NCBI RefSeq assembly: GCF_026626745.1 | Contig: NZ_JAPNJW010000002.1 | Span: forward strand, 1,190,151 to 1,254,150 | Direction: 5' to 3' | Length of the DNA: 64,000 nucleotides | Origin: Nannocystis sp. RBIL2 | GTDB lineage: Bacteria; Myxococcota_A; Polyangia; Nannocystales; Nannocystaceae | Part shown: positions 27,718 through 56,105 of the stretch, piece after piece | Numbering within the stretch: the stretch's first letter is position 1 | Layout: every line of letters begins with the position of its first letter | Translations under genes and position numbers: made by a program | Notes under the pieces: model-generated | Told to the model about the DNA's origin: nothing | Databases searched by the model: none | What the model saw: only the letters and a program-made list of their open reading frames with translations

Positions 27718-27783
27718 CTGCAAGTGAGTGCTCACTCACCGTGCCACGGCTCCAGGACGGTTGCAAGTGAGTGCTCACTCAGG
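27718..27783. promoter_or_regulatory. putative TetR operator pair in the divergent promoter region
   Basis: Two identical copies of CTGCAAGTGAGTGCTCACTCA (27718-27740 and 27761-27783), each with dyad AGTGAG-TG-CTCACT, located between the monooxygenase start (27707) and the tetR start (27800). Confidence 0.5.
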
Positions 27784-27799
27784 CCAAGCTCTCGGGGTC

Positions 27800-28423
27800 A
27801 TGGCCACGCGCGAAGACGATCCAGGGCCGGTGCGCGGCGTCGAGCGCATCGTCCGCGCCGCGATCGAAGTGATCGCGGAGCGCGGCTTTCGAGGCGCCGC
27901 GACCAGCGAGATCGCTAGGCGGGCGGGCGTCGCCGAGGGCACGATCTTCCGCCACTTCAAGACCAAGCAGCTGCTGCTCGACCACATCCTCGAGCCGTTC
28001 GTCGAGCGGGTGCTCGCGCCCATCGCCTTCCGCGACCTGCACCGGCTGATCGACACCGACTACCCGGACTTCGCCGAATTCCTGCGGGAGTTCGCGCGCA
28101 ACCGCCTCGCGGTCGCGCGCGAGCACGTGCCGGCGCTGCGGATCTTCTTACAAGAAGTCCCGCTCAGCCCGGAGCTGCGGACGATGGTGTTCCGCCACAT
28201 CGGCCGCCACGTCATCCCCGAGCTGCTGGCAGTCATCCGCAAGTACCAGGCGCGCGGACAGATCCGGAACGACCCCCCGGAGACCGTCCTGCGGCTCCTC
28301 ATGAGCGCCCTGGGCGGCTACATCATCACGCGCCTGGCCATCCTGCCCGACTACCCGTGGGACGACGACCGCGAGATCGAGCTCACCATCGGCGCGATGT
28401 CCCGCGGCCTGCGCCCCGACTGA
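27800..28423 (+). CDS. TetR/AcrR-family transcriptional regulator
   Basis: ORF 27728..28423, Met MATRED at 27800; HTH GFRGAATSEIARRAGVAEGTIFRHFKTKQ. Confidence 0.85.
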   Translation: MATREDDPGPVRGVERIVRAAIEVIAERGFRGAATSEIARRAGVAEGTIFRHFKTKQLLLDHILEPFVERVLAPIAFRDLHRLIDTDYPDFAEFLREFARNRLAVAREHVPALRIFLQEVPLSPELRTMVFRHIGRHVIPELLAVIRKYQARGQIRNDPPETVLRLLMSALGGYIITRLAILPDYPWDDDREIELTIGAMSRGLRPD

Positions 28424-29000
28424 CCTGTCCTCTCGGGCCAGCCTCAGACGCGCGCCCTCAGGACGTCGCCTCACCTGTTCCTGAGGTCCTGTCCTTTCGA
28501 ACAGCCTCTCGCGCGTTCTAGCGACGTCATCTCGCGGAACCCGGAGTCTGCCGACACAGCGCCTGTCCTTTCGACCAGCCTCACGAGCTCTCGAGACCGC
28601 CGAGGTACCGGTCGCATCGCTATCTCACTCGGAGCTCGGACTCTGCCCGGCACCCTTCTGTCCTCTCGACCAGCCTCACGCGCGATCCTCGGACGTCACC
28701 TCACTCGGAACTCGGACTCTGCCCGGCACCCTCCTGTCCTCTCGACCAGCCTCACGCGCGCTCCTCGGACGTCACCTCACTGGGCACTCGGACTCTGCCC
28801 GAAGCACACCTGTCCTTTCGACCATCACGCGCGTGCTGCAGGCGTCATCTCACGCGGAACTCGGAGCCTGCACGTCGAGCTCCTGTCCTTTCGACCAGCC
28901 TCCCGCGCGCGCCCCCGAGATGTCCGCCGCACGCCTGAGCCTGCCTGACGACGTCCTGCCCTTCTCACAGTCTCACGTACGCACCCGCCGGACGTCGCCT
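28424..29000. repeat. degenerate intergenic tandem array, about 8 units of 65-95 nt, each beginning CCTGTCCTYTCGAMCAGCCTC
   Basis: Read directly: units start at about 28424, 28488, 28562, 28657, 28733, 28809, 28883, 28956; units 4 and 5 are about 90% identical; no ORF with coding-like codon usage. Confidence 0.8.
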
Positions 29001-29073: not shown

Positions 29074-30780
29074 GTGTTCGGCTCGCTCCCGCCGCCGCCG
29101 CGGCGCTACTTGCCCGCGCGCGTGCGCCTCGATCGGCTCGCCGATCTCGAGGCCTGCTACGGCGAGCTCGGCGCGCGACCGTTGCCGGCCGACGATCCAT
29201 GGATCCTCGAGCAATGGCTACGCGACTGGTCCGAGCTCGAGAGCCACCTCGCCGAGGCCCAGGCGCGGCGACAGATCGCCACCAGCTGCAGCGCCGACGA
29301 GCCCGAGGCTGCGCGCGCCTGGCTCGTCCACGTCGACGTCCTCGGCCCCGCCTGCAAACCGCTGCGCCACGGCCTCACGCGGCGGCTCGTCGAGCACCCG
29401 GCGGCAGCTCGCCTCCCGCCCGGCCACGCCTGCGCCCTCGCGGTGCTGCGCAACCAGGCCGACCTCCACCGCCCCGCCCTCGTCCCGCTCGAGGCCGCCG
29501 AGCAGCACCTGTGCGCTGCCTACGGCCAGCTGCGGGCCGGCATGCGGTTCCCCTGGGACGGCGCCGACACTCCGCTGGCCCACGTCGAGCGCAGCGAGGA
29601 CGACCCTGACCGTTCGCGGCGCGAGGCCGCCTGGCGCACCGTCGCGGCCGAGTTCCGCGCAGTGAAGCCCGAGCTCGACCACCTGTTCGACCGCCTCCTC
29701 GACAACCGCAGGGCCCAGGCCGCCGCCGCCGAGCTGCCCGAGTACCGCGCCTATCGCTTCCGCCGCCTCGACCGCCTCGCCTACGGCCCCGCAGACTGCC
29801 TCGCGCTGCACGAGGCCATCGCCGCCGAGTTCGTCCCCCTCGCCGGCCTCGTCCTCCGTCGCCGCGCCGCCGCCCTCGGCCTCGACGTCCTGCGCCCGTG
29901 GGACCTCGGGGCCCTGCCCGGCGGCCCGCTCGTCCCGTTCACCCGCGAGGAGGCGCTGATCGCCGGCTGCGCCCGCGCCTTCGAGGCCGTCGACCCCGAG
30001 TTCGCCCGCCAGTTCTCGCGCCTCGCCGAACATGGCCTTTTGGACCTGATGTCGAGGCCAGGCAAGGCCGCCGGCGCCTTCCAGGTCCACCTCCACGCCA
30101 GCGGCCTCCCCTTCGTGTTCGCCGGCGCCGTCGGCCGCCACGAGGACGTGCTCACCGTCTTGCACGAGTCCGGCCACGCCTTCCACGCCCTCGCCTGCGC
30201 CGGCGATGCGCTGATCTGGAACCGCCAACCCCCGATCGAATTCTGCGAGGTCGCCGGCATGGGCATGGAGCTGCTCGCCGCCGCTCACCTGGGCGCCTTC
30301 TACGACGCCGACACCTGCACCCGCGCGGCGCGCCACCAGCTCGAGCAGCTCGTCCTGTTCCTCCCGCACGCCGCCGCCATCGACGCCTTCCAGCACTGGG
30401 TCTACACCCGCCCCGACGAGGCCAGCGACCGTGTGGCTCGCGACGCCGCCTGGCTCGCGCAGCACGGGCGGCTGTGCCCCGGCGTCGACTGGAGCGGCCT
30501 CGAGGCCGACCGCGCCGCCCTGTGGGGGCGTCGCCTGCACGTGTTCGAGCTGCCCTTCTACTACATCGAGTACGCGATCGCCGGCCTCGGCGCAGTGCAA
30601 CTCCACCGCCGCGCCCTCGCCGAGCCCGCCGCCGCCGTCGCCGACCTCCGCCGCGCCCTCGCCCTCGGCGCCCGCGCCCGCCTGCCCGACCTGTTCGCCG
30701 CCGCCGGTCTGAACTTCGGGACAGATCGCAGCACCGTGCGCCGGGCCGCCGCCGCCTGCCGCGAGCTCCTCGACCTGTGA
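29074..30780 (+). CDS. pepF: M3-family oligoendopeptidase F
   Basis: GTG start; zinc-binding HESGHAFH (HExxH) and overall PepF-like length and pattern. Confidence 0.8.
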   Translation: MFGSLPPPPRRYLPARVRLDRLADLEACYGELGARPLPADDPWILEQWLRDWSELESHLAEAQARRQIATSCSADEPEAARAWLVHVDVLGPACKPLRHGLTRRLVEHPAAARLPPGHACALAVLRNQADLHRPALVPLEAAEQHLCAAYGQLRAGMRFPWDGADTPLAHVERSEDDPDRSRREAAWRTVAAEFRAVKPELDHLFDRLLDNRRAQAAAAELPEYRAYRFRRLDRLAYGPADCLALHEAIAAEFVPLAGLVLRRRAAALGLDVLRPWDLGALPGGPLVPFTREEALIAGCARAFEAVDPEFARQFSRLAEHGLLDLMSRPGKAAGAFQVHLHASGLPFVFAGAVGRHEDVLTVLHESGHAFHALACAGDALIWNRQPPIEFCEVAGMGMELLAAAHLGAFYDADTCTRAARHQLEQLVLFLPHAAAIDAFQHWVYTRPDEASDRVARDAAWLAQHGRLCPGVDWSGLEADRAALWGRRLHVFELPFYYIEYAIAGLGAVQLHRRALAEPAAAVADLRRALALGARARLPDLFAAAGLNFGTDRSTVRRAAAACRELLDL

Positions 30781-30995
30781 CGATATCTGTCCCTCAGGAC
30801 ATCTCGCTGCGGCGTCGGCCCTGCGATGTCAGATGTCCCGAAGGGCATTTCGCTGCGGCGTCAGCCCTGCGATGTCAGATGTCCCGAAGGGCATTTCGCT
30901 GCGGCGTCAGCCATGCCGCTGACGGCCCCACGCGACCTGTCCTTCGAGCCAGCTCGCGGCAGCCGGCCGGCCTGCCGCGAGCTCCTCGACCTGTG
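30755..30995. repeat. 25-bp direct repeat (CCTGCCGCGAGCTCCTCGACCTGTG) flanking a 191-bp insert with an internal 48-bp tandem duplication
   Basis: Copy 1 at 30755-30779 is the last codons of pepF; copy 2 at 30971-30995; the insert carries GGACA/TGTCC palindromes and two copies of CGCTGCGGCGTCAGCCCTGCGATGTCAGATGTCCCGAAGGGCATTT. Confidence 0.8.
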
Positions 30996-30997
30996 GC

Positions 30998-32233
30998 TCA
31001 CTCGTACGCCGTCACGTACATGTGATAGGTCTCGAAGTCGACCGCGCCGGACGCGAAGATCGTCCCCGCGTCGTCGATCGCCACGTCGACCTCCCATGAC
31101 CCGCTGTCGCAGCGGTGCGCCGCCAGCGTCGCGCCGGACGGGTCGAGCCGCGCCACCATCCCGCGGAACGGCGTGTCGTTGTTGTGGTGGCCGCCGACCG
31201 CGATCTCGCCGCTCGCGTTGACCGCGAGGTCGCCGAAGCTCCACATGTCCTCGACATGCGTGTCCCACAGCGGCGTCCCGTCGGCCGCGAACTTCTCGAT
31301 CCTCACTCCCGACGACCCGATCTGAGCCCCGACCACCACCGCGCCCGCGCCGTCGATCGCCGCCGTGCTGAGCACCGAGAGCTCCCACGGGCGCGTCCAC
31401 AGCTCCTCGCCGGACGGGTCGAGCAGCCGGACGCCCTCGTTCCACACCAACGCCACCATCGTGCCCGCCGACCCGATCGCCGCCACCTCGAGTTGGTCCG
31501 CGACCTCGAGGTCCCACAGCAGCGTCCCGTCGGCCGCGTGCTTGACCATCCGCGTCCCGTCGCCGACGGCAGCGCGGTCGCTGTACACCGTCGTCCCGTC
31601 GGCCGCGATCGCTACGCCGTAGCCCGACCAGAAGCCCTGATCGCTCGGTCCCAGGTCGCTCTCCCACAGCATCGTCCCCGCCGGGTCGAACTTGCGCAGC
31701 CACTTCCGCGGCGACACGCCGCCCTCGTCGCGGAACATCGCGTAGCCGTTGCCCGCCGCGTCGATGTCCCAGTAGATCGCACCCGACGGGATCGGCAATG
31801 TCGCCACCAGCGTCCCTGCCGCGTCGAACTCGCGCGTCAGACCGTCGCTGAACACCCGCGCCCGCCCGTCGGCCGCGAGCGACACCTTGCCCGCGCCGCT
31901 GGTCTCCGGATTGACGAACAGCCACGCGCCGCCCTCGCACGCGAAGTCCTCCGGCGTCGACCCCGAGTCGGTGTCGTGCCCTCCCGATGTCGTCTCGGTC
32001 GTCGCGTCGCCCGGATCGTCGGTCGTCTCGTCCGGTCCGCCGGTCGTCTCCGGCACGCCGGTCGTCCCCTCGCTGTCAGTCCCGCCGCCCCCCGACGTCC
32101 CGTCGCTGTCGCTCCCGCCCGTGGTCGTCCCCGCGCTGAGCGTCCCGCCCGTGACCCCCGGGTCCTTCGGATCGCAACCTGTCACAACAGCCATGAATCC
32201 AAGGACATGTCCAATATACCATGTTCTAAGCAT
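30998..32233 (-). CDS. lipoprotein with beta-propeller-like repeats
   Basis: ORF 30998..32272, Met MLRTWYIGHVLGFMAVVTGC at 32233 (lipobox VTGC) preceded by GAGGAG RBS; Thr/Gly-rich linker, then repeated WD/PQQ-like blades. Confidence 0.7.
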   Translation of the reverse strand: MLRTWYIGHVLGFMAVVTGCDPKDPGVTGGTLSAGTTTGGSDSDGTSGGGGTDSEGTTGVPETTGGPDETTDDPGDATTETTSGGHDTDSGSTPEDFACEGGAWLFVNPETSGAGKVSLAADGRARVFSDGLTREFDAAGTLVATLPIPSGAIYWDIDAAGNGYAMFRDEGGVSPRKWLRKFDPAGTMLWESDLGPSDQGFWSGYGVAIAADGTTVYSDRAAVGDGTRMVKHAADGTLLWDLEVADQLEVAAIGSAGTMVALVWNEGVRLLDPSGEELWTRPWELSVLSTAAIDGAGAVVVGAQIGSSGVRIEKFAADGTPLWDTHVEDMWSFGDLAVNASGEIAVGGHHNNDTPFRGMVARLDPSGATLAAHRCDSGSWEVDVAIDDAGTIFASGAVDFETYHMYVTAYE

Positions 32234-32758
32234 ACTTTTCTCCTCGCTCGCGGCCGCCGAGGCCGTCCGCAATTCCTGGTTCGTCGCCCCATGACGGTGC
32301 AGCGCCGGCCGGCCCCAGACCGGTCCTGTCGGCTGCCCACGAGCGGGCCCGCGCGTCGCCCCGGAGCATCTTCGGGCCGATCCGACCTGAACCTGCCTCT
32401 TCGGTCAGCCTCGGCCTCGCGGAGCCCGCCGTCGTGCGCGCCTGCCTCCTCGGCAGCGAACTCCCGGCGACCCTCTCCGCGCGGAGACTCGTCACCGTGA
32501 ATCGCAGCCCGGAGCGACGCCGCATCTGCCGCTTCCGCAAGCAATTCCCGCACCTCCCGATCCTCACGAAAATCCCTAATCCTCTCGAAGATCGTTCGTG
32601 CGCGCGTAAGTCCCATCACGACCGCCGCGTCCGACCCAGCCGGCGCCGCGCCCGTCGCGAGTCCGGAGGGTCATGTCTCCGAGGACAGCTCGTGGGCGCC
32701 GCCGGCCCCGGTCCCCACCTCTTGCGCCGCTCGCCCGCGCTCGCGCATCCTTCGCCCC

Positions 32759-43737: not shown

Positions 43738-44637
43738 ATGAACGTCGCCGCCGCCGTCACCCACCTCCTTCCTCTCCCGGCCGGTGGCGGCGTCGCCGCC
43801 CCTCTTGATGTGGTGGAGCTCCAGTCCGAGCTCGACGTCCTCGCCGACGAGGCCCTGCGCGCGCGCCGCCAGGGCCTTTCTTTGTTGACCGCGGTCCGCG
43901 ACCCGCGTTTCCCGGCCCTCCAGGGCTTCCACCAGGGCCTGCGCGACGCCCTCTTCCTCGAGATACCGGAAGAGCTGGAGCCGTGGGCCCGGCTCGCCGC
44001 CAACGGAGCCGGCAATCCGCCGCTGCAGCACATGCTCTTCGACTTCGCCCGCGGCGGCGACGAGGACGACCGGCGCAGCGCCCTCCAGGCTGCCCTGGCC
44101 GAGCTGCTGGTGTTCGAGGCCATCCGCCTGCGCCTGTTCGTCACCGCCTTCCGCGGCGAGGAGTTCGAGGTCGTCGGCGGCGAGGAGTCCGACGTCGACG
44201 CGATCGCCTACACCGAGGTCGCGACGCTCCTCCACCGCCCCGAGCTCGCCGATCCCGAGGTCCGCCCGCTGACCGTCCTGCTCGCGTCCGCCTCGGTCTC
44301 GCTCGCCCGCGACGCCCAGTCGCGCGCCGAGGAGCTGCGCGACACCGGCGAGGACACCCGCGAGGAGCTGCGCATGCGCGCCCGCCTCCGCGCCGCCCTC
44401 CGCGAGCTCCGCCTGCCCGAGGCCGTCCTGCTGGAGAACGCCCTGGCCGCGCTGCTGGGCGAGGAGCGGCGCGAGCTCACCGAACTGCAGGCCGAGCGGC
44501 CCGTCGCCCTCGACGGCATGACTCGCCAGGCCATGGACCAGCGGGTCTCTCGCGGTCGGCGAGCGCTCGCCCACCCGCGCTCGACGTGGCCCCGCCGCCG
44601 CCGCCCGGCCCTGTTCGATCTGCTCCAGCGCGCCTGA
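43738..44637 (+). CDS. hypothetical protein
   Basis: High GC3 in the + frame; the 466-aa minus-strand ORF 43174..44574 is a G/R/A-rich shadow. Confidence 0.5.
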   Translation: MNVAAAVTHLLPLPAGGGVAAPLDVVELQSELDVLADEALRARRQGLSLLTAVRDPRFPALQGFHQGLRDALFLEIPEELEPWARLAANGAGNPPLQHMLFDFARGGDEDDRRSALQAALAELLVFEAIRLRLFVTAFRGEEFEVVGGEESDVDAIAYTEVATLLHRPELADPEVRPLTVLLASASVSLARDAQSRAEELRDTGEDTREELRMRARLRAALRELRLPEAVLLENALAALLGEERRELTELQAERPVALDGMTRQAMDQRVSRGRRALAHPRSTWPRRRRPALFDLLQRA

Positions 44638-45125
44638 GCCAAACGAAAGCGCGACGGCTCAGCGGCGCCAGCGCCTGTAAATCAAGATTAGAAGCTCTGC
44701 TTCGAGTCGCACCGCTGTTCGAAGCAGAGTTGACCTACTGCGCCCGAGACGATCGAGGGCGCAGCAGACCCGACAGCAGGCCAGCGGCTTCGCGTCGAGC
44801 TATCCGCTCCGTGAGGCTCACGTGCGCCTCGTTGGACGGCCCCTGGCCTGACTGCCTCCCTGCGTCGTTCGAAGCATCCTCGCTCCGGCAACACGCGTTC
44901 GCTGTGGCGCTCGCCGGTCCGCGCGCAGCGGAGCATCGCCTGTACCTCCCGGGATCGCCACCGAGCCGGCGCGAACCGACGAACCGCCGCTGACGACGAG
45001 CGCCGGCCTCGAGGCCCTGGAGCCGCGGCTTCAGGGGCGCGTCGTGCGTGCGAGGTCGACGTCACGGATCTCGCCTCGCGAACGGGTTCACGGCGGGCGC
45101 GACCCTGGTATGCTCCGCGCCCGCC

Positions 45126-45662
45126 ATGGCCGCCCCACCCGAACCCACACGCGGACCGCGGATCGCCCTCGCAGCGGTGATCGCCGGTCTCAGCCTCGGC
45201 CTCGACCTTTGGAGTAAGGCGTGGGTCTGGAACAATTTGCGGGACCAGGCCGCCTGGAAGGTCAGCGACAAGCTGCTGCACTTCGACTTCGCCTGCAATC
45301 CCGGCTCTGCCTTCGGCTTCCTCAACGACGTCGACTGGGCGCGCTACTTCTTCATCGTCATCACCCTGGCCGCGGTCGGCTACCTCGTCCACCTCGCGCG
45401 GACCTTGCCGACCACCAGCCGGGCCGCCTTCATCGCCATCGGCCTGATCGCCGGCGGCGCCCTCGGCAACCTGCACGACCGCCTGGTCCGGGTCTACGCC
45501 GGCGACTACTGCGTGGTCGACTTCATCGTCGTCTACCTGTGGGGCGGCAAGACCTGGCCGGCCTTCAACATCGCCGACGCCGTCCTGGTCGCGGGCGTGC
45601 TGTTGTTCCTGCTCGTGCTGCCGCGCACCGAGGCCGCCGCCGACAATCGGACCGCCGCCTGA
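45126..45662 (+). CDS. lspA: lipoprotein signal peptidase II, copy 1
   Basis: ORF 45048..45662, Met MAAPPEP at 45126; LspA signatures NPGSAFGF, GGALGNLHDRL, FNIADA; 4 TM segments. Confidence 0.85.
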   Translation: MAAPPEPTRGPRIALAAVIAGLSLGLDLWSKAWVWNNLRDQAAWKVSDKLLHFDFACNPGSAFGFLNDVDWARYFFIVITLAAVGYLVHLARTLPTTSRAAFIAIGLIAGGALGNLHDRLVRVYAGDYCVVDFIVVYLWGGKTWPAFNIADAVLVAGVLLFLLVLPRTEAAADNRTAA

Positions 45663-45985
45663 GCCTCGTGCGGCCCCAAGCGTCGAGGCAACCATCTGCC
45701 TGAGTCTCTTGCGGCCACCCCCGACAATCGGACCTCCGCCTGAGCCGCGAGCTCTCGCGCCGCGAGGCAGCCGTCATCGGACCTTCGCCCGGACCCTCGA
45801 GCTGCCCCTCAGGGCACCGAGGCGGCGCCCGACAATCGGGCCTCAGCCTGAGCCATGAGCTCTCGCCCCGAGGCAGCCGTCATCGGACCTTCGCCCGAAC
45901 CATCGAGCTCCCGCCCCAGGGCACCGCGGCCACCCCCGGACCTCCCCTCAGCCTCGAGCTCCCGCTCCGGACCTGCCTCGTCCTG
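45636..45985. repeat. tandem repeat (about 110 nt x2 plus partial copies) seeded from the 3' end of lspA copy 1
   Basis: CCGACAATCGGACC(G/T)CCGCCTGAGCC occurs at 45643 (last codons of lspA), 45722 and 45836; full units 45717-45828 and 45829-45934. Confidence 0.8.
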
Positions 45986-46160
45986 CTGCGCCCCGGGCCG
46001 CCGCCGGTCGAACCCGCCAGAGCACCGCGGCAACCGCGCTACCGAACCCGCAACCCTGCCCGGCAGCCCTTCGGACCGTCTCTGCGGCCCGCGGCGCAGC
46101 GGTGGCTGCGCTTGCTCGCCCTGGTGCCTCGGGTACACTGGCCAGGTTTTTCGGCCCTAC

Positions 46161-46745
46161 ATGAGCGACACGCCAGCATCGAACCGGCTCCGGCCGATCC
46201 TCGTCACCGCGTCCGCAGCCGCGGTGTTTCTGATCCTCGATCTCGTGACCAAGAGCTGGGCCTGGGACAACCTCCGGCCGCCGAACCGGCAGATTGCCGC
46301 GATCGGCAACTGGTTCCACTGGTCCTACAGCTTCAACACCGGCTCCGCCTTCGGCTTCCTGCGCGGCCAGGACTTCTCGCGTCCCCTGTTCATCGTCGTC
46401 ACCCTCGTGACGGTGGTCTACATGGCCGCCCTCGTCCGCAAGCTGCCGACCGACCGCCTCTACGGCTTCTTCGCCATCGGCTGCATCATCGGCGGCGCCC
46501 TCGGCAACATGCACGACCGCCTGCTGCGCCAGGACTCCGACCCCCACGGCAACCTCACCCACGGCGTGGTCGACTTCATCCGCGTCTGCTCCCCGTGGAA
46601 CCCTCGCGGTCTGTGCTGGCCGAACTTCAACGTCGCCGACATCGCCCTCGTCGTCGGCGTCCTGCTGCTCATCCCTTACTTGATGTTCCACGCGCAACCG
46701 CCGGAAATCAAAGAAAATACGCCCGATGCAAAGCCCGCCAGCTGA
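46161..46745 (+). CDS. lspA: lipoprotein signal peptidase II, copy 2 (paralogue)
   Basis: ORF 45855..46745 trimmed to Met MSDTPASNRL at 46161 (the upstream part runs through the tandem repeats); NTGSAFGF, GGALGNMHDRL, FNVADIA. Confidence 0.85.
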   Translation: MSDTPASNRLRPILVTASAAAVFLILDLVTKSWAWDNLRPPNRQIAAIGNWFHWSYSFNTGSAFGFLRGQDFSRPLFIVVTLVTVVYMAALVRKLPTDRLYGFFAIGCIIGGALGNMHDRLLRQDSDPHGNLTHGVVDFIRVCSPWNPRGLCWPNFNVADIALVVGVLLLIPYLMFHAQPPEIKENTPDAKPAS

Positions 46746-47008
46746 GCCGCGGTCGGGGCCCCGACTTCTCGAAGCGAAGCGCCCCCCAGTCGCTCTTGAA
46801 CCCAGGGCAAGGCCCTCCCACCGGAGCCGCAGTCGCGCCGCCGGCTCCGGGCAAGGCGACACCTGAACCTCGTCGGCCGCCCAATCCGCAGGCGGCAGCG
46901 CTGCGGGCGGCGATTTGATGAGCCCCCCGTTCCTCGCCCCGGAAGCTCCGCGGCTCACCGAGCACTCGCCACCGCCTGTGGAGTCCGCCCAGCCCTGAAG
47001 CCGGCCGC

Positions 47009-48274
47009 TCAGGCTCGCTCGAACGCGCGCACCTTGTCCCAGGACTCGCGGCGTTCGGCCTCCGGGTCGGAGTCGATCACGATCCCCCCGCCACTCTGCA
47101 GCCACAGCCCGGCCGCGTCCGCCACCCCGGTGCGGATCGGGATGCTGCAGCGCAGACCGTCGGGCAGCAGCGCCACGATCGCCCCGCAGTAGATCCCGCG
47201 AGCGCGCTGCTCGAGCCGCTCGATGTGCTCGGCCGTGCGCCGCTTGGGGGCTCCTGTCACGCTGCCGCCGGGGAACACCGCCGCCATCACCTCCGCCAGC
47301 GTCCATCCCTGGCGCAGCGTGCAGCGGACCTCCGACACCAGGTGATGCACCGTCGGCAGCGTCACCAGCTCGGGCCGGGCCGGCGCGCGGACCGAACCCG
47401 GACGCGCGAGCCGGCCGAGATCGTTGCGCACAAGATCAACGATCATCACGTGTTCAGCGAGATCTTTGATGCTCTGCTGCAACTCTTCTTGGGCCGCCCG
47501 ATCGCCCTCCGGATCGGCCCCTCGCGGGCGCGTCCCCTTGATCGGCCACGAGCGCGCCAGGTCGCCCCCGTCCTCTCCTGCCCCCAGCTCGATCGCCAGC
47601 AGCGTCTCCGGCGAATTGGAGATCGCCCAGCGTCCGCACGGCCGGCCGGGCTCGATCGCCAGCAGGCCTCCCATGCTCGCCGGCGTCGCCGCCTGCACCG
47701 CGGCATACACGGCCGCCGCCCTGGCCGCCACCGGCCGACTCGCCCATTCCGGCAGCCACCGCGCCACGAACGGCTGCGTCAGGTTGATCTGGTACGTCTC
47801 CCCGGCCGCGATGAATTCCTGCGCCCGGCGCACGCGCGCCCGGTAGTCCTCGGCAGCGACCAGCGCCTCGACCGGACCCAGCGGCCAGTCCTGTCCCCAG
47901 AGCCAGGTGGCGGTCGCCAGCCGCGCCAGCAGTTCCGCCCCGGCGCGAGCGTCCCCATGGATCTGCTCGCGCGCCCCGAGCTCGAGCGCCGCCCGGTAAC
48001 GGCGGAGCACCAGCCCCGGCAAACTCGCCGCCGTCCGCGGGCGGCCGAGCAGCGCCGCAGTGCCCACCTCGTACGTCAGCCAGCCGAACCACGGCAGCCT
48101 CGGCTCCGCCCGCCAGAGCGCCTCGATCGTCGGCAACGCCGTCAGATCGTCGGCCACCACCTCGAGGTCGGGCTCGAGCGCCACGAACCCGCGGCCCGCT
48201 CCGCCGTCGAGCCACGCCAACGCGCCGCCCGGCTCCGACGCGGCCAGCGCCGCGATCTGGCGCGCCCGGCTCAC
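47009..48274 (-). CDS. pabB: aminodeoxychorismate/anthranilate synthase component I family (chorismate-binding enzyme)
   Basis: GTG start overlaps the pgsA stop; C-terminal chorismate-binding signature PGGSVTGAPKRRTAEHIERLE...GIYCGAIV. Confidence 0.8.
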   Translation of the reverse strand: MSRARQIAALAASEPGGALAWLDGGAGRGFVALEPDLEVVADDLTALPTIEALWRAEPRLPWFGWLTYEVGTAALLGRPRTAASLPGLVLRRYRAALELGAREQIHGDARAGAELLARLATATWLWGQDWPLGPVEALVAAEDYRARVRRAQEFIAAGETYQINLTQPFVARWLPEWASRPVAARAAAVYAAVQAATPASMGGLLAIEPGRPCGRWAISNSPETLLAIELGAGEDGGDLARSWPIKGTRPRGADPEGDRAAQEELQQSIKDLAEHVMIVDLVRNDLGRLARPGSVRAPARPELVTLPTVHHLVSEVRCTLRQGWTLAEVMAAVFPGGSVTGAPKRRTAEHIERLEQRARGIYCGAIVALLPDGLRCSIPIRTGVADAAGLWLQSGGGIVIDSDPEAERRESWDKVRAFERA

Positions 48275-53604: not shown

Positions 53605-53952
53605 ATGAGCCCCCTGCTCGACTACCTGCCTCTCGTCGCAGCCGTCGGGCTCATCGGGGTCCTCGCCGGCCTGGTCCGCGCGCGTGCGAGGCAGCAGGCC
53701 GCGCCCGACGCCGGCGAGAGCCTGGTTCAGCTGCGCCCGCGTCAGCCCGTCGACACCGGCGGCCTCCTCGCGCTGGCCGGCCTCGGCTTCGCGCTCGCGC
53801 TGGCCCTGGTCCTGTTCGCGCCGACCGCCGCGGTCTGCCTGTCCAGCACGACATGTCCGGAAGGACCTGCCCTTTGGGTCAGCGCCGCCGGCCTGGGTCT
53901 GCTGGGTCTGGCGACCGCGATCGCGTGGCCCTCGCTGACCCGCGCGCCATGA
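53605..53952 (+). CDS. small membrane protein
   Basis: ATG directly after the macro-gene stop; three hydrophobic segments; contains an in-frame GGACATGTCC-type element (STTCPEGPALW). Confidence 0.45.
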   Translation: MSPLLDYLPLVAAVGLIGVLAGLVRARARQQAAPDAGESLVQLRPRQPVDTGGLLALAGLGFALALALVLFAPTAAVCLSSTTCPEGPALWVSAAGLGLLGLATAIAWPSLTRAP

Positions 53953-56105
53953 TCCGCCCGCGCGCCGCCGCCTCGCCTGCGCCCGCGTCGGCGAGCGGCG
54001 TCGTCGCGCTGGGTGTCTCGGCGAGTAACCTGGCCCAAAGCGCCTGCGACGGCCCGGCGCTGGACGTCGTGTCGCGCGAGCTGGCGTCGCCGCTTCGCGG
54101 CTTCAGGGTCCGTGCGAGCTCCTCGCTCGAGCTCGCGGGGCAGGACTTCCCGCTGCACCCGCCCGCTTCGGCCATGCCAGGCGTCGACGAGATGTCTGCG
54201 AGCTCCTCGCTCGCGGTCGTCTCGCCGCCTCTACTTCTTCGCGGCTTCGAAGCAAGCACTTGCACTGGGCTTGAGGTCGCGTCGCTGCGCTCGTCCGCTT
54301 CGGTCGACGAGACGCCGACGAGTTCGCCGCGCGAGGCCGCGTCGCCGCTTCCACTTCTCTGCCGCTTCGAAGCAAGCGCGAGCACTCGGCTCGAGGTCGC
54401 GTCGCTGCGGTCGACCGCCTCGGTCATGCAAGTTGTCGGCGAGACGCTGGCGAGCTCCTCGCGCGAGGCCGCGTCACCGCTTCCACTTCCTCGCGACTTC
54501 GAGGCAAGCGCGAGCACCCGGCCCGAGGTCGCGTCGCCGCTTCCGCCCGCTTCGGTCATGCGTGGTGTCGACGAGACGCTGGCGAGCTCCTCGCCCGAGG
54601 CCGCGTCACCGCTTCCACTTCCTCGCGACTTCGAGGCAAGCGCGAGCACCCGGCCCGAGGTCGCGTCGCCGCTTCCGCCCGCTTCGGTCATGCGTGGTGT
54701 CGACGAGACGCCGGTGAGCTCCGCGCCCGAGATCGCATCGCCGCTTCTTCGCAATTTCGACGCGAGCGCGAGCTCCTCGCCCGAGTCCCTGTCGCAGGAC
54801 GTCGCCCTGCGGCTGTCCACTTCGGTCGTCTCGCCGCTCCCACTCGCCCGCGTCGCGCACGCGAGCTCGCCGCTCCCTCGTCGCAACTTCCTCCGCGCCG
54901 CGCTCTCGCCCGCAGCGCCTTGCGTCCTCTTCTTCGCGCTCGGGCTCGGCTGCGGGGCCCCTCCGACGGGAGTGCGCGCCGAACCGGGGACGCTGGTGTT
55001 CACGCCGGCGGCGCAGCGTCTCGAGCTGCGACTCGTGAATCACGGCGCGGCGCCCGTCCCGTTGACGCGGATCCGCTTCGACACCCGCACCCCCGACTGG
55101 GGCGCCTTCTCGATCGAGAACCGCGAGTACCCGCGGGAGATCGCTGCTGGCGGAGCCGTGAGCCTGCGCCTCCGCGTCGACCGCGACCACTTCGATCGCA
55201 CCGGCGCCTCCGGCTCCGGCAGCGCGCGCCTCCTCTTCGCGGCGGGAGAGGCGCCCCAGATCGTCGAGCTCCGCTGGGAGCCACCCGATCTCGCGAGCGA
55301 TCTGCGGCGCACGGCGATCCGCACCGCCCTGGCGCTCGCGCTCGTCGCGCTGGCGTGGATCTCGACGCGCCGCACCCGGCTGAACTGGACCGCCTGGCTG
55401 CCGGTGGTGGCCGTCCTGGCGCTGTTCCCGTTCGGTCCGGGCCTGTGCTTCGACGGCCTCGGCAGCAGCCTTTCCGCCGCGGACGTCGAGCAGTGCGCCG
55501 CGGGACGGGGAGGTGCTTCGCTGTCGCTGATCGCCGTCGGCGAAGGCTGGCTCGTCTATCTCGTCGCCCTCGTGCTCGCCGGTCTCGGTCGCCTCGTCGA
55601 CCGGGCTGCGCTGGCCCGCCGCCTGGCGTCGCGCGACCTCGCCCTCGCCGCCGCATTCGCCGGCCCTTTGCTGGCCTTTGGCACCCTCGATCCACGGCAG
55701 CTCGTGGGGGAGCAAGCAGCGGGGCTCGTCGGCGGTGCTGCGATCCCCCCCGCCTGGGGAATCTTCGTGCAACCGATCGCCGCTGCCGTCGCCCTCGCGG
55801 TCGCGGCCGCGCCGCCGGCAGGACGGCTCGAGCGGCTCGTCTTCGCGGCGGCGTTCGTCGCCTGTTTCCTCGGCGGTGGTGTGCCCGCGACGGTACTCGC
55901 CGGCAGCGGCCACGGCCTCGTGCTGTTCATCGGCGCAGTCGTGGCGGCGGCGAAGATCGCTGCGGTCGTGTGGTTCGTGCAGCGGCTGCACGCGTCGGCC
56001 ACCGGCTCGCGTGCGCGCGCCGCTCTCTTCTTTCTCGAGCGGGCCGCGATGCCCCTGGCGATCGCCAATCTGCTGGCGACGTCGGTCTACGCCCTGCTGT
56101 GGTGA
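53949..56105 (+). CDS. repeat-containing protein with Tat/lipobox-like internal signal and a multi-TM C-terminal domain (start uncertain)
   Basis: ATGA overlap with the upstream gene; frame open through the 120-bp repeat array; PRRNFLRAALSPAAPCVLFFALGLGC looks like a twin-arginine lipoprotein signal; C-terminal 300 aa has at least 6 hydrophobic helices; the true start may lie downstream of the repeats. Confidence 0.45.
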   Translation: MIRPRAAASPAPASASGVVALGVSASNLAQSACDGPALDVVSRELASPLRGFRVRASSSLELAGQDFPLHPPASAMPGVDEMSASSSLAVVSPPLLLRGFEASTCTGLEVASLRSSASVDETPTSSPREAASPLPLLCRFEASASTRLEVASLRSTASVMQVVGETLASSSREAASPLPLPRDFEASASTRPEVASPLPPASVMRGVDETLASSSPEAASPLPLPRDFEASASTRPEVASPLPPASVMRGVDETPVSSAPEIASPLLRNFDASASSSPESLSQDVALRLSTSVVSPLPLARVAHASSPLPRRNFLRAALSPAAPCVLFFALGLGCGAPPTGVRAEPGTLVFTPAAQRLELRLVNHGAAPVPLTRIRFDTRTPDWGAFSIENREYPREIAAGGAVSLRLRVDRDHFDRTGASGSGSARLLFAAGEAPQIVELRWEPPDLASDLRRTAIRTALALALVALAWISTRRTRLNWTAWLPVVAVLALFPFGPGLCFDGLGSSLSAADVEQCAAGRGGASLSLIAVGEGWLVYLVALVLAGLGRLVDRAALARRLASRDLALAAAFAGPLLAFGTLDPRQLVGEQAAGLVGGAAIPPAWGIFVQPIAAAVALAVAAAPPAGRLERLVFAAAFVACFLGGGVPATVLAGSGHGLVLFIGAVVAAAKIAAVVWFVQRLHASATGSRARAALFFLERAAMPLAIANLLATSVYALLW
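54060..54900. repeat. tandem array of about 7 units of about 120 nt (two adjacent near-identical copies at about 54453-54572 and 54573-54692)
   Basis: Unit GAGACGCTGGCGAGCTCCTCGCNCGAGGCCGCGTCACCGCTTCCACTTCCTCGCGACTTCGAGGCAAGCGCGAGCACCCGGCCCGAGGTCGCGTCGCCGCTTCCGCCCGCTTCGGTCATGCGTGGTGTCGAC; all six frames stay open across it. Confidence 0.85.

Follow-up and report, generated by a model that had tools for sequence, protein, structure and literature searches.

A tandem array between two lspA genes of the Nannocystis pusilla clade that resembles a minisatellite seeded from a gene end

Bacterial intergenic minisatellites, or variable-number tandem repeat (VNTR) loci, serve in MLVA typing, and the edge units of tandem arrays are typically degenerate. 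Copies of gene ends are known from a different context: phages and islands integrate into the 3' ends of tRNA, tmRNA, or protein genes, which gives rise to attL/attR duplications. MIRUs, of the kind present in the senX3-regX3 spacer, are repeats between co-directional genes, and Supply et al. are said to have described, in 1997, units of about 53 and 77 nt. MIRUs are dispersed and apparently mobile; their insertion sites are start codons, and the ORF within them is coupled in translation to the neighbouring gene with a -4 nt spacing (PMC12548453).

The locus described here lies in a window (the whole stretch of DNA that was analysed, 64 kb in length) and consists of two co-directional signal peptidase II genes, lspA-1 and lspA-2, with a spacer of 498 nt between them (Table 1). 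Both proteins match PF01252 over its full length (106.3 and 110.7 bits; gathering cut-off 25). The LspA-1 protein is identical to WP_267708087.1 from Nannocystis sp. ILAH1, the flanks of the array are 95-97% identical to N. pusilla strains, and the locus, assigned to Nannocystis by a scan of one genome per species, belongs to the N. pusilla clade. Extra lspA copies in myxobacteria are associated with self-resistance to LspA-targeting antibiotics, for example myxovirescin. LspA is the target of myxovirescin (PMC8401837).

Table 1. Features of the lspA-1/lspA-2 locus, in positions of the window
Feature	Coordinates	Strand	Basis or detail
lspA-1 (signal peptidase II, 178 aa)	45126..45662	+	Pfam Peptidase_A8 E=2e-30; GC3 0.95-1.0
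Gene-end source segment GCACCGAGGCCGCCGCCGACAATCGGACCGCCGCCTGAGCC, TGA stop 45660-45662 inside	45625..45665	+	alignments, pattern search
Rest of short degenerate first unit U0 (U0 = 45640-45720; period 81 nt from 45640)	45663..45720	+	repeat search, alignment
Stop-codon segment duplicated internally in U0	45698..45716		89% identical to 45657-45675; repeat search
Unit U1, 108 nt	45721..45828	+	gene-end head with 1 mismatch = P D N R T S A stop
Unit U2, 106 nt	45829..45934	+	88-90% identical to U1; gene-end copy with 3 mismatches
Truncated third unit U3, head deleted	45935..45982	+	local alignment and repeat search
Distal, older, degenerate copy of the lspA-1 end CTGCTGCGCCCCGGGCCGCCGCCGGTCGAACCCGCCAGAGC	45983..46023	+	score 33 vs 99% shuffle level 27
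Non-repetitive spacer segment, conserved within the N. pusilla clade alone	46027..46096	+	blastn vs L004, L036: 96%
Near-invariant block: TTGCTC (46112-46117), 16 nt, TACACT (46134-46139), 21 nt to ATG	46097..46160	+	ten-genome alignment
lspA-2 (signal peptidase II, 194 aa), ATG 46161	46161..46745	+	Pfam Peptidase_A8 E=8.6e-32; GC3 profile

The best explanation, to which a probability of roughly three in four is given, is that the spacer from 45663 to 46026 is a non-coding, locus-specific minisatellite (VNTR) that originated from the 3' end of lspA-1 and most probably serves no function by itself. The array looks like a real but ordinary, neutrally evolving minisatellite with ordinary bacterial VNTRs as its closest analogues. 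The likeness lies in head-to-tail units (tens to about 150 nt), a position in non-coding spacer outside the coding sequence, a unit number and structure that vary between strains, growth by slippage or unequal exchange, and edge units that are more degenerate than the rest. Unlike in other bacterial VNTRs, the founder unit in Nannocystis is recognisable as the last codons and stop of the upstream gene, and unlike a clean, recent VNTR expansion, the array is strongly degenerate (73-95% identity between units).

The end of lspA-1 is the 26-nt string CCGACAATCGGACCGCCGCCTGAGCC at 45640-45665, found without mismatches in a pattern search and inclusive of the TGA stop; it reads (G)CC GAC AAT CGG ACC GCC GCC TGA GCC, which in the CDS 45126-45662 encodes ...A D N R T A A and the stop. 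The same string occurs again at 45721-45746 (1 mismatch) and at 45829-45854 (3 mismatches), and matches to it were found in none of 100 dinucleotide-preserving shuffles. The initial annotation had described a gene-end string of 24 nt that recurs at 45722 and 45836 at the head of two units of about 110 nt, the first starting at 45717, with a partial third unit behind them. The recurrence, the two further copies, and the two units (108 and 106 nt) stand, but the string is 26 nt long, the copies start at 45721 and 45829 by pattern search, and the first unit starts at 45721 as well. A partial third unit does exist: the stretch 45937-45969 aligns with positions 9-42 of U1 at a score of 40, reached by none of 300 shuffles. 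U3 lacks the CCGACAAT head, and its TGA has been changed to TCA.

Tandem Repeats Finder reported an array at 45720-45930 with a period of 106, 2.0 copies, and 88% matches; the local alignment of U1 and U2 scored 139, against a shuffle maximum of 32, and that of U0 and U1 scored 49 (reached in 0/300 shuffles). At the U1/U2 junction, 41 nt are homologous to the gene end (45625-45665 and 45814-45854, 85% identical), a stretch that starts further 5' than the initial annotation had described. The second half of each 106-108-nt unit is itself weakly similar to the gene end, with scores of 28-29 that are barely above the 99% shuffle level, and the window has five gene-end copies above the shuffle level. 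Judged by the sequence, it looks as if nearly the whole of the variable spacer has been built from a single founder of about 50 nt. The most degenerate copies are found at the distal edge of the array, which is what unequal exchange would be expected to produce, and the distal copy at 45983-46023 has a positional counterpart in the N. pusilla strains L004 (4738-4770), L034, and L036. A 17-nt inverted repeat, with arms that are 94% complementary and 82 nt apart (45985-46001, GCTGCGCCCCGGGCCGC, and 46084-46100, GCGGCCCGCGGCGCAGC), pairs this old gene-end copy with bases just upstream of the conserved block before lspA-2; in DNA of 77% GC it may well be due to chance.

Conserved repeats of 26-41 nt at regular spacing are also a feature of CRISPR arrays. 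The gaps between the 26-nt copies are about 66-82 nt, with start-to-start distances of 81 and 108 nt; however, the intervening segments are 88-90% identical between units, and the sequences are hence tandem repeats. A CRISPR-like reading was ruled out by this homology of the supposed spacers to one another, and neither a CRISPR leader nor cas context was seen among the surrounding ORFs.

The direction in which the copies were derived can be read from related species. The lspA-1/lspA-2 tandem is kept in N. exedens, N. punicea, N. radixulma, and N. bainbridge, where the spacers lack an array and measure 132, 143, 267, and 207 nt, respectively; none of these four spacers contains a gene-end copy above the 99% shuffle level. 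Homologous LspA-1 tails are nonetheless present in N. exedens (...ADGRTTA*), N. punicea (...ADGRAAS*), and N. bainbridge (...PPDARPAA*), the tail of N. radixulma (...PAGNASPST*) being diverged. Species without an array thus have homologous tails but lack copies of the gene end, which makes the gene end ancestral and the copies in the spacer derived. These homologous tails, together with the variable arrays within the clade, bear out the origin that had been proposed from the sequence alone, namely the duplication of a segment that included the gene end.

A comparison with related strains had been suggested as a check on unit-number variation, and such variation was found: in the N. pusilla clade the spacers range from 283 to 692 nt, and both the unit counts and the periods differ. 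The spacer measures 283 nt in the JGI metagenome contig L038, 334 nt in L036 and L037, 424 nt in strain Na p29 (L004), 498 nt in the window, 620 nt in L034, and 692 nt in L035. The other genomes of the clade have one to four further gene-end copies above the shuffle threshold, in arrays of differing lengths. For example, L034 has 2.5 copies of a 110-nt unit at 73% identity, and L035 has 2.2 copies of a 149-nt unit at 93% identity plus 1.9 copies of a 74-nt unit, whereas L004 and L036 have differently arranged, short units of about 50-75 nt that are derived from the gene end. Since both the number and the structure of the units differ among these genomes, the array is a variable-number tandem repeat.

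Single positions within the copies suggest how the array grew. GAGGCGG is common to all spacer copies of the window, L034, and L035, while the genes have GAGGCCGCC at this place; after the first seeding, therefore, growth was mostly from unit to unit rather than by seeding anew from the gene. The distal copy keeps the outgroup-like GGT state of the N. exedens gene end, most clearly in L004 (Na p29), where it reads CCGACGGTCGGA, while inner copies have AAT (window, L034, and L035) or a CAT-like triplet (L004 and L036), as do the clade's own gene ends. This pattern shows that duplication or seeding took place in more than one round, or else that the gene end and the units next to it underwent gene conversion.

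In the DNA searched, the unit does not occur as a dispersed element. A profile of the unit (nhmmer) found this locus alone in 144.6 kb of Nannocystis DNA, and there are no unit copies elsewhere in the 64-kb window; a dispersed repeat family was ruled out on these grounds. Exact-pattern scans with a unit-internal 24-mer and the gene-end motif gave no matches in metagenome contigs, and neither did an exact-pattern scan of viral contigs, exact matching being stringent for a sequence that evolves this fast. This single location in the DNA searched separates the array from MIRUs, which it otherwise resembles in having repeats of 40-100 nt, often in tandem and variable in number, that lie between co-directional genes and touch a gene boundary. 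The Nannocystis unit, unlike a MIRU, comes from the end of its own upstream gene; its units (81, 108, and 106 nt) lack a consistent ORF and a consistent start codon, and the reading frame varies from strain to strain. Among U0-U2, only U2 has an ATG after its TGA, and no coupling ORF that overlaps the stop and start codons of the flanking genes was found.

The arrangement of an intact gene followed by a direct repeat of its 3' end is shared with attL/attR duplications. The repeats could accordingly be scars of a mobile or integrative element that targeted the 3' end of lspA-1 and restored the gene end, the copies being att-like or target-site duplications. The order of gene end, variable insert, degenerate gene-end copy, and conserved downstream DNA would fit such an event, as would the M3 peptidase gene in the same window (end at 30780), of which a 25-nt end segment is repeated without change 216 nt downstream, flanking an unrelated 46-nt array, with an insert that differs in length in two other genomes. 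Against this, the copies at lspA-1 are multiple and in tandem, and the interior consists of the gene-end unit itself rather than foreign sequence. Within the 498 nt of the spacer there is no integrase or transposase ORF, no recombinase-encoding element between the direct repeats, and no coding signal, and terminal inverted repeats flanking the array are absent. The unit is also missing from every other locus in the 144.6 kb and from the exact-pattern viral and metagenome scans, and the nested copies of graded divergence fit array dynamics better. An origin from a mobile element is thus very improbable.

Whether any part of the spacer is translated bears on the start of lspA-2. The initial annotation held that the 305-nt N-terminal extension of the ORF 45855-46745, which runs through the repeats, is probably non-coding; the extension is in fact 306 nt (102 codons) long, and its non-coding nature is upheld by several lines of evidence. 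GC3 is 0.95-1.0 within both lspA genes but 0.68-0.82 in the extension; across 45660-46140 the GC content is 0.6-0.9 in all three phases and three-base periodicity is absent. No Pfam match was found in the extension. In an alignment of ten genomes, ATG 46161 and the preceding 65 nt are nearly invariant, and the other spacers of the clade (283, 334, 424, 620, and 692 nt) are none of them divisible by three, so that a frame across the spacer is not kept. LspA-2 is annotated as 194 aa in three other genomes (L034, L035, and L038), and the true start of lspA-2 is ATG 46161.

The view that part of the spacer is translated, whether as an extended LspA-2 from ATG 45855, as small coupling ORFs of the MIRU kind, or by read-through of the lspA-1 TGA, can draw on the fact that the ORF 45855-46745 continues into lspA-2 in the same frame without interruption, and on a public annotation in one N. 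pusilla genome (L036 3174-3956) that calls LspA-2 as 260 aa and reaches into the repeat spacer. In addition, from the start of lspA-1 to the stop of lspA-2 this frame is interrupted by three TGA codons, all in gene-end copies, and by no other stop. In 166 codons, however, about 2.6 stops would arise from base composition, close to the three observed, and their shared frame is argued to be a coincidence. With the low GC3 of the extension, its lack of a Pfam match, the spacer lengths of the other genomes, and an invariant promoter-like block inside the supposed extension also against it, translation of the spacer is hardly credible. Read-through of the three in-frame TGAs was ruled out by GC3, the unconserved frame, and the expected number of stops; an antisense ORF at 45809-46138 was rejected as coding by GC3, its unconserved frame, and a stop count that follows from composition. 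The array does mislead annotation: the public 260-aa LspA-2 carries a false N-terminal extension, and the 296-aa ORF of the window is of the same kind. Another public annotation gives LspA-1 as 161 aa from an internal start (L034 2501-2986).

The near-invariant block upstream of lspA-2 is probably the lspA-2 promoter with a very short leader, although it was not called by the consensus scan. It reads CAGCGG.GGCTGCGCTTGCTC, 16 nt, TACACT, and 21 nt to the ATG, before which there is no obvious Shine-Dalgarno sequence. Because lspA-2 has a conserved promoter-like region of its own, the paralogues are probably expressed separately.

A role at the RNA level would require the units to be functional cis elements, such as tandem stem-loops in the 3' UTR of lspA-1 that terminate or stabilise the transcript and insulate lspA-2, with their core under selection. 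A gene-end hairpin, GAGGCGG...CCGA-CAA-TCGG...CCGCCT, can be drawn in which AGGC/GCCT and CCGA/TCGG pairs are possible in the gene end and in most, if not every, spacer copy; 78% of its cells are paired, against 15-47% in slid controls, but this advantage is expected since the hairpin was derived from one of the sequences. The junction of U1 and U2 (45807-45860) folds at -26.5 kcal/mol with z=-2.9, and in the spacer copies of three strains the CCGACAATCGG...CCGCCTGAGC core has changed less than the sequence around it and is the best-conserved part of the unit, which could reflect constraint rather than recent common descent. On the other side, the whole units have fold z-scores of -0.85 to +0.11 (-0.96 to +0.11 for the remaining units and junctions), and the covariation of the hairpin does not exceed that of shuffles: the observed score was reached by 88 of 500, and the two pairs with double changes were matched by 128 of 500. 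The hairpin core is lost in the type-B arrays (L004 and L036), and four related species do without any array.

Searches for known RNA signals gave a similar picture. No Rfam match at E<=1 was found in 44000-47500. Two terminator-like sites were called in 44600-47100, both of them inside the lspA genes and in a number equal to the shuffle expectation; within the array the consensus scan called neither terminator-like nor promoter-like sites, and the spacer has no U-tract that could complete a hairpin as an intrinsic terminator. On this evidence a function of the units as RNA elements is unlikely.

The neutral minisatellite remains the preferred reading, and its history would run as follows. In the ancestor of the pusilla clade, a tandem duplication would have placed, immediately behind the gene, a second copy of the last ~45 nt of lspA-1, with the stop included, and of a few downstream bases. 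From two copies onward, slippage or unequal recombination could add, delete, fuse, and homogenise units, with the higher-order units of 81, 106-108, 110, and 149 nt that are seen across strains as the outcome, and the edge copy farthest from the gene would have decayed. The site would be a tolerant one, bounded on one side by the cytoplasmic tail of LspA-1, which is unconstrained, and on the other by the promoter-like block of lspA-2, which is conserved and separate; from this position it follows that the array would evolve at about the neutral intergenic rate. Slippage or unequal exchange is presumably the molecular mechanism, and neutrality is likewise presumed. One counterpoint to neutrality is that unit periods of about 106-110 nt correspond to about ten helical turns, which is argued to be a coincidence.

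Within the clade, the tail of LspA-1 has diverged more rapidly than third codon positions, and it has done so equally between species without an array. The idea that the array speeds the evolution of the tail was ruled out by the comparison of N. exedens with N. punicea, both array-less, in which the tail has 0.33 differences per nt, a value that matches the general intergenic rate. The tail is simply unconstrained. The lspA genes of L034 and L035, by comparison, have 98-100% nucleotide identity, against 60-85% in every flanking spacer, which reflects either very strong synonymous constraint or recent recombinational exchange. In its rate of change the array is thus like the rest of the intergenic DNA around these genes. 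Between L034 (2001-4300) and L035, third positions of lspA-1 differ at 1 of 169, and the neighbouring pabB-like gene is about 95% identical.

The practical consequences are small, although the array could be used as a strain-typing marker for the N. pusilla clade. It also provides a clean, datable example of a tandem array that was born from a gene end and then evolved by unit-to-unit exchange, and it would be of more interest only if the process were frequent genome-wide or if the array affected the expression of the lspA paralogues. Within the 64-kb window, two genes, lspA-1 and that for the M3 peptidase, have downstream copies of their own last codons beside strain-variable arrays. That the copying of gene 3' ends into the downstream spacer is a recurrent, genome-wide process in Nannocystis is conceivable, but doubtful. 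If it were true in general, such arrays would drive the turnover of C-terminal tails and stop codons, and gene-end-seeded minisatellites would form a distinct class.

The M3 peptidase gene (29074-30780, +) ends with CCTGCCGCGAGCTCCTCGACCTGTG, and the exact 25-mer appears again at 30971-30995, 2 nt before the stop of a convergent gene (30998-32404, -). Between the two copies (30755-30995) lie a 46-nt tandem array of 2.8 copies (30788-30916) and the hairpin CGTCAGC-CATGCC-GCTGACG. Both copies are also found in N. pusilla Na p29 (L039) and in a Logan contig (L041), with inserts of about 91 and 130 nt and two differences between the copies. The identity of 25/25 in the window, as opposed to the differences in L039 and L041, therefore suggests gene conversion, which on these sequences may be ongoing between the gene end and its downstream copies.

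Several other medium-period arrays are present in the same window, so such repeats are common in this genome. A degenerate array with units of about 76 nt (28424-28910) fills the spacer between a TetR-family gene (27728-28423), at whose stop codon it starts, and the M3 peptidase gene. The core motif of this array, CCTGTCCTTTCGACCAGCCTC, has five occurrences against 0.01 expected. A related CCTGTCC motif occurs at 30936, and the version in Na p29 is arranged differently (L039 693-870). A further array at 54303-54747 has 3.4 copies of a 132-nt unit at 89%, with sub-periods of 60 and 72 nt, and is located inside the ORF 53853-56105, which has a moderate coding signal (GC3 0.84 overall and about 0.8 across the array) and a Pfam NADHdh match below the gathering score.
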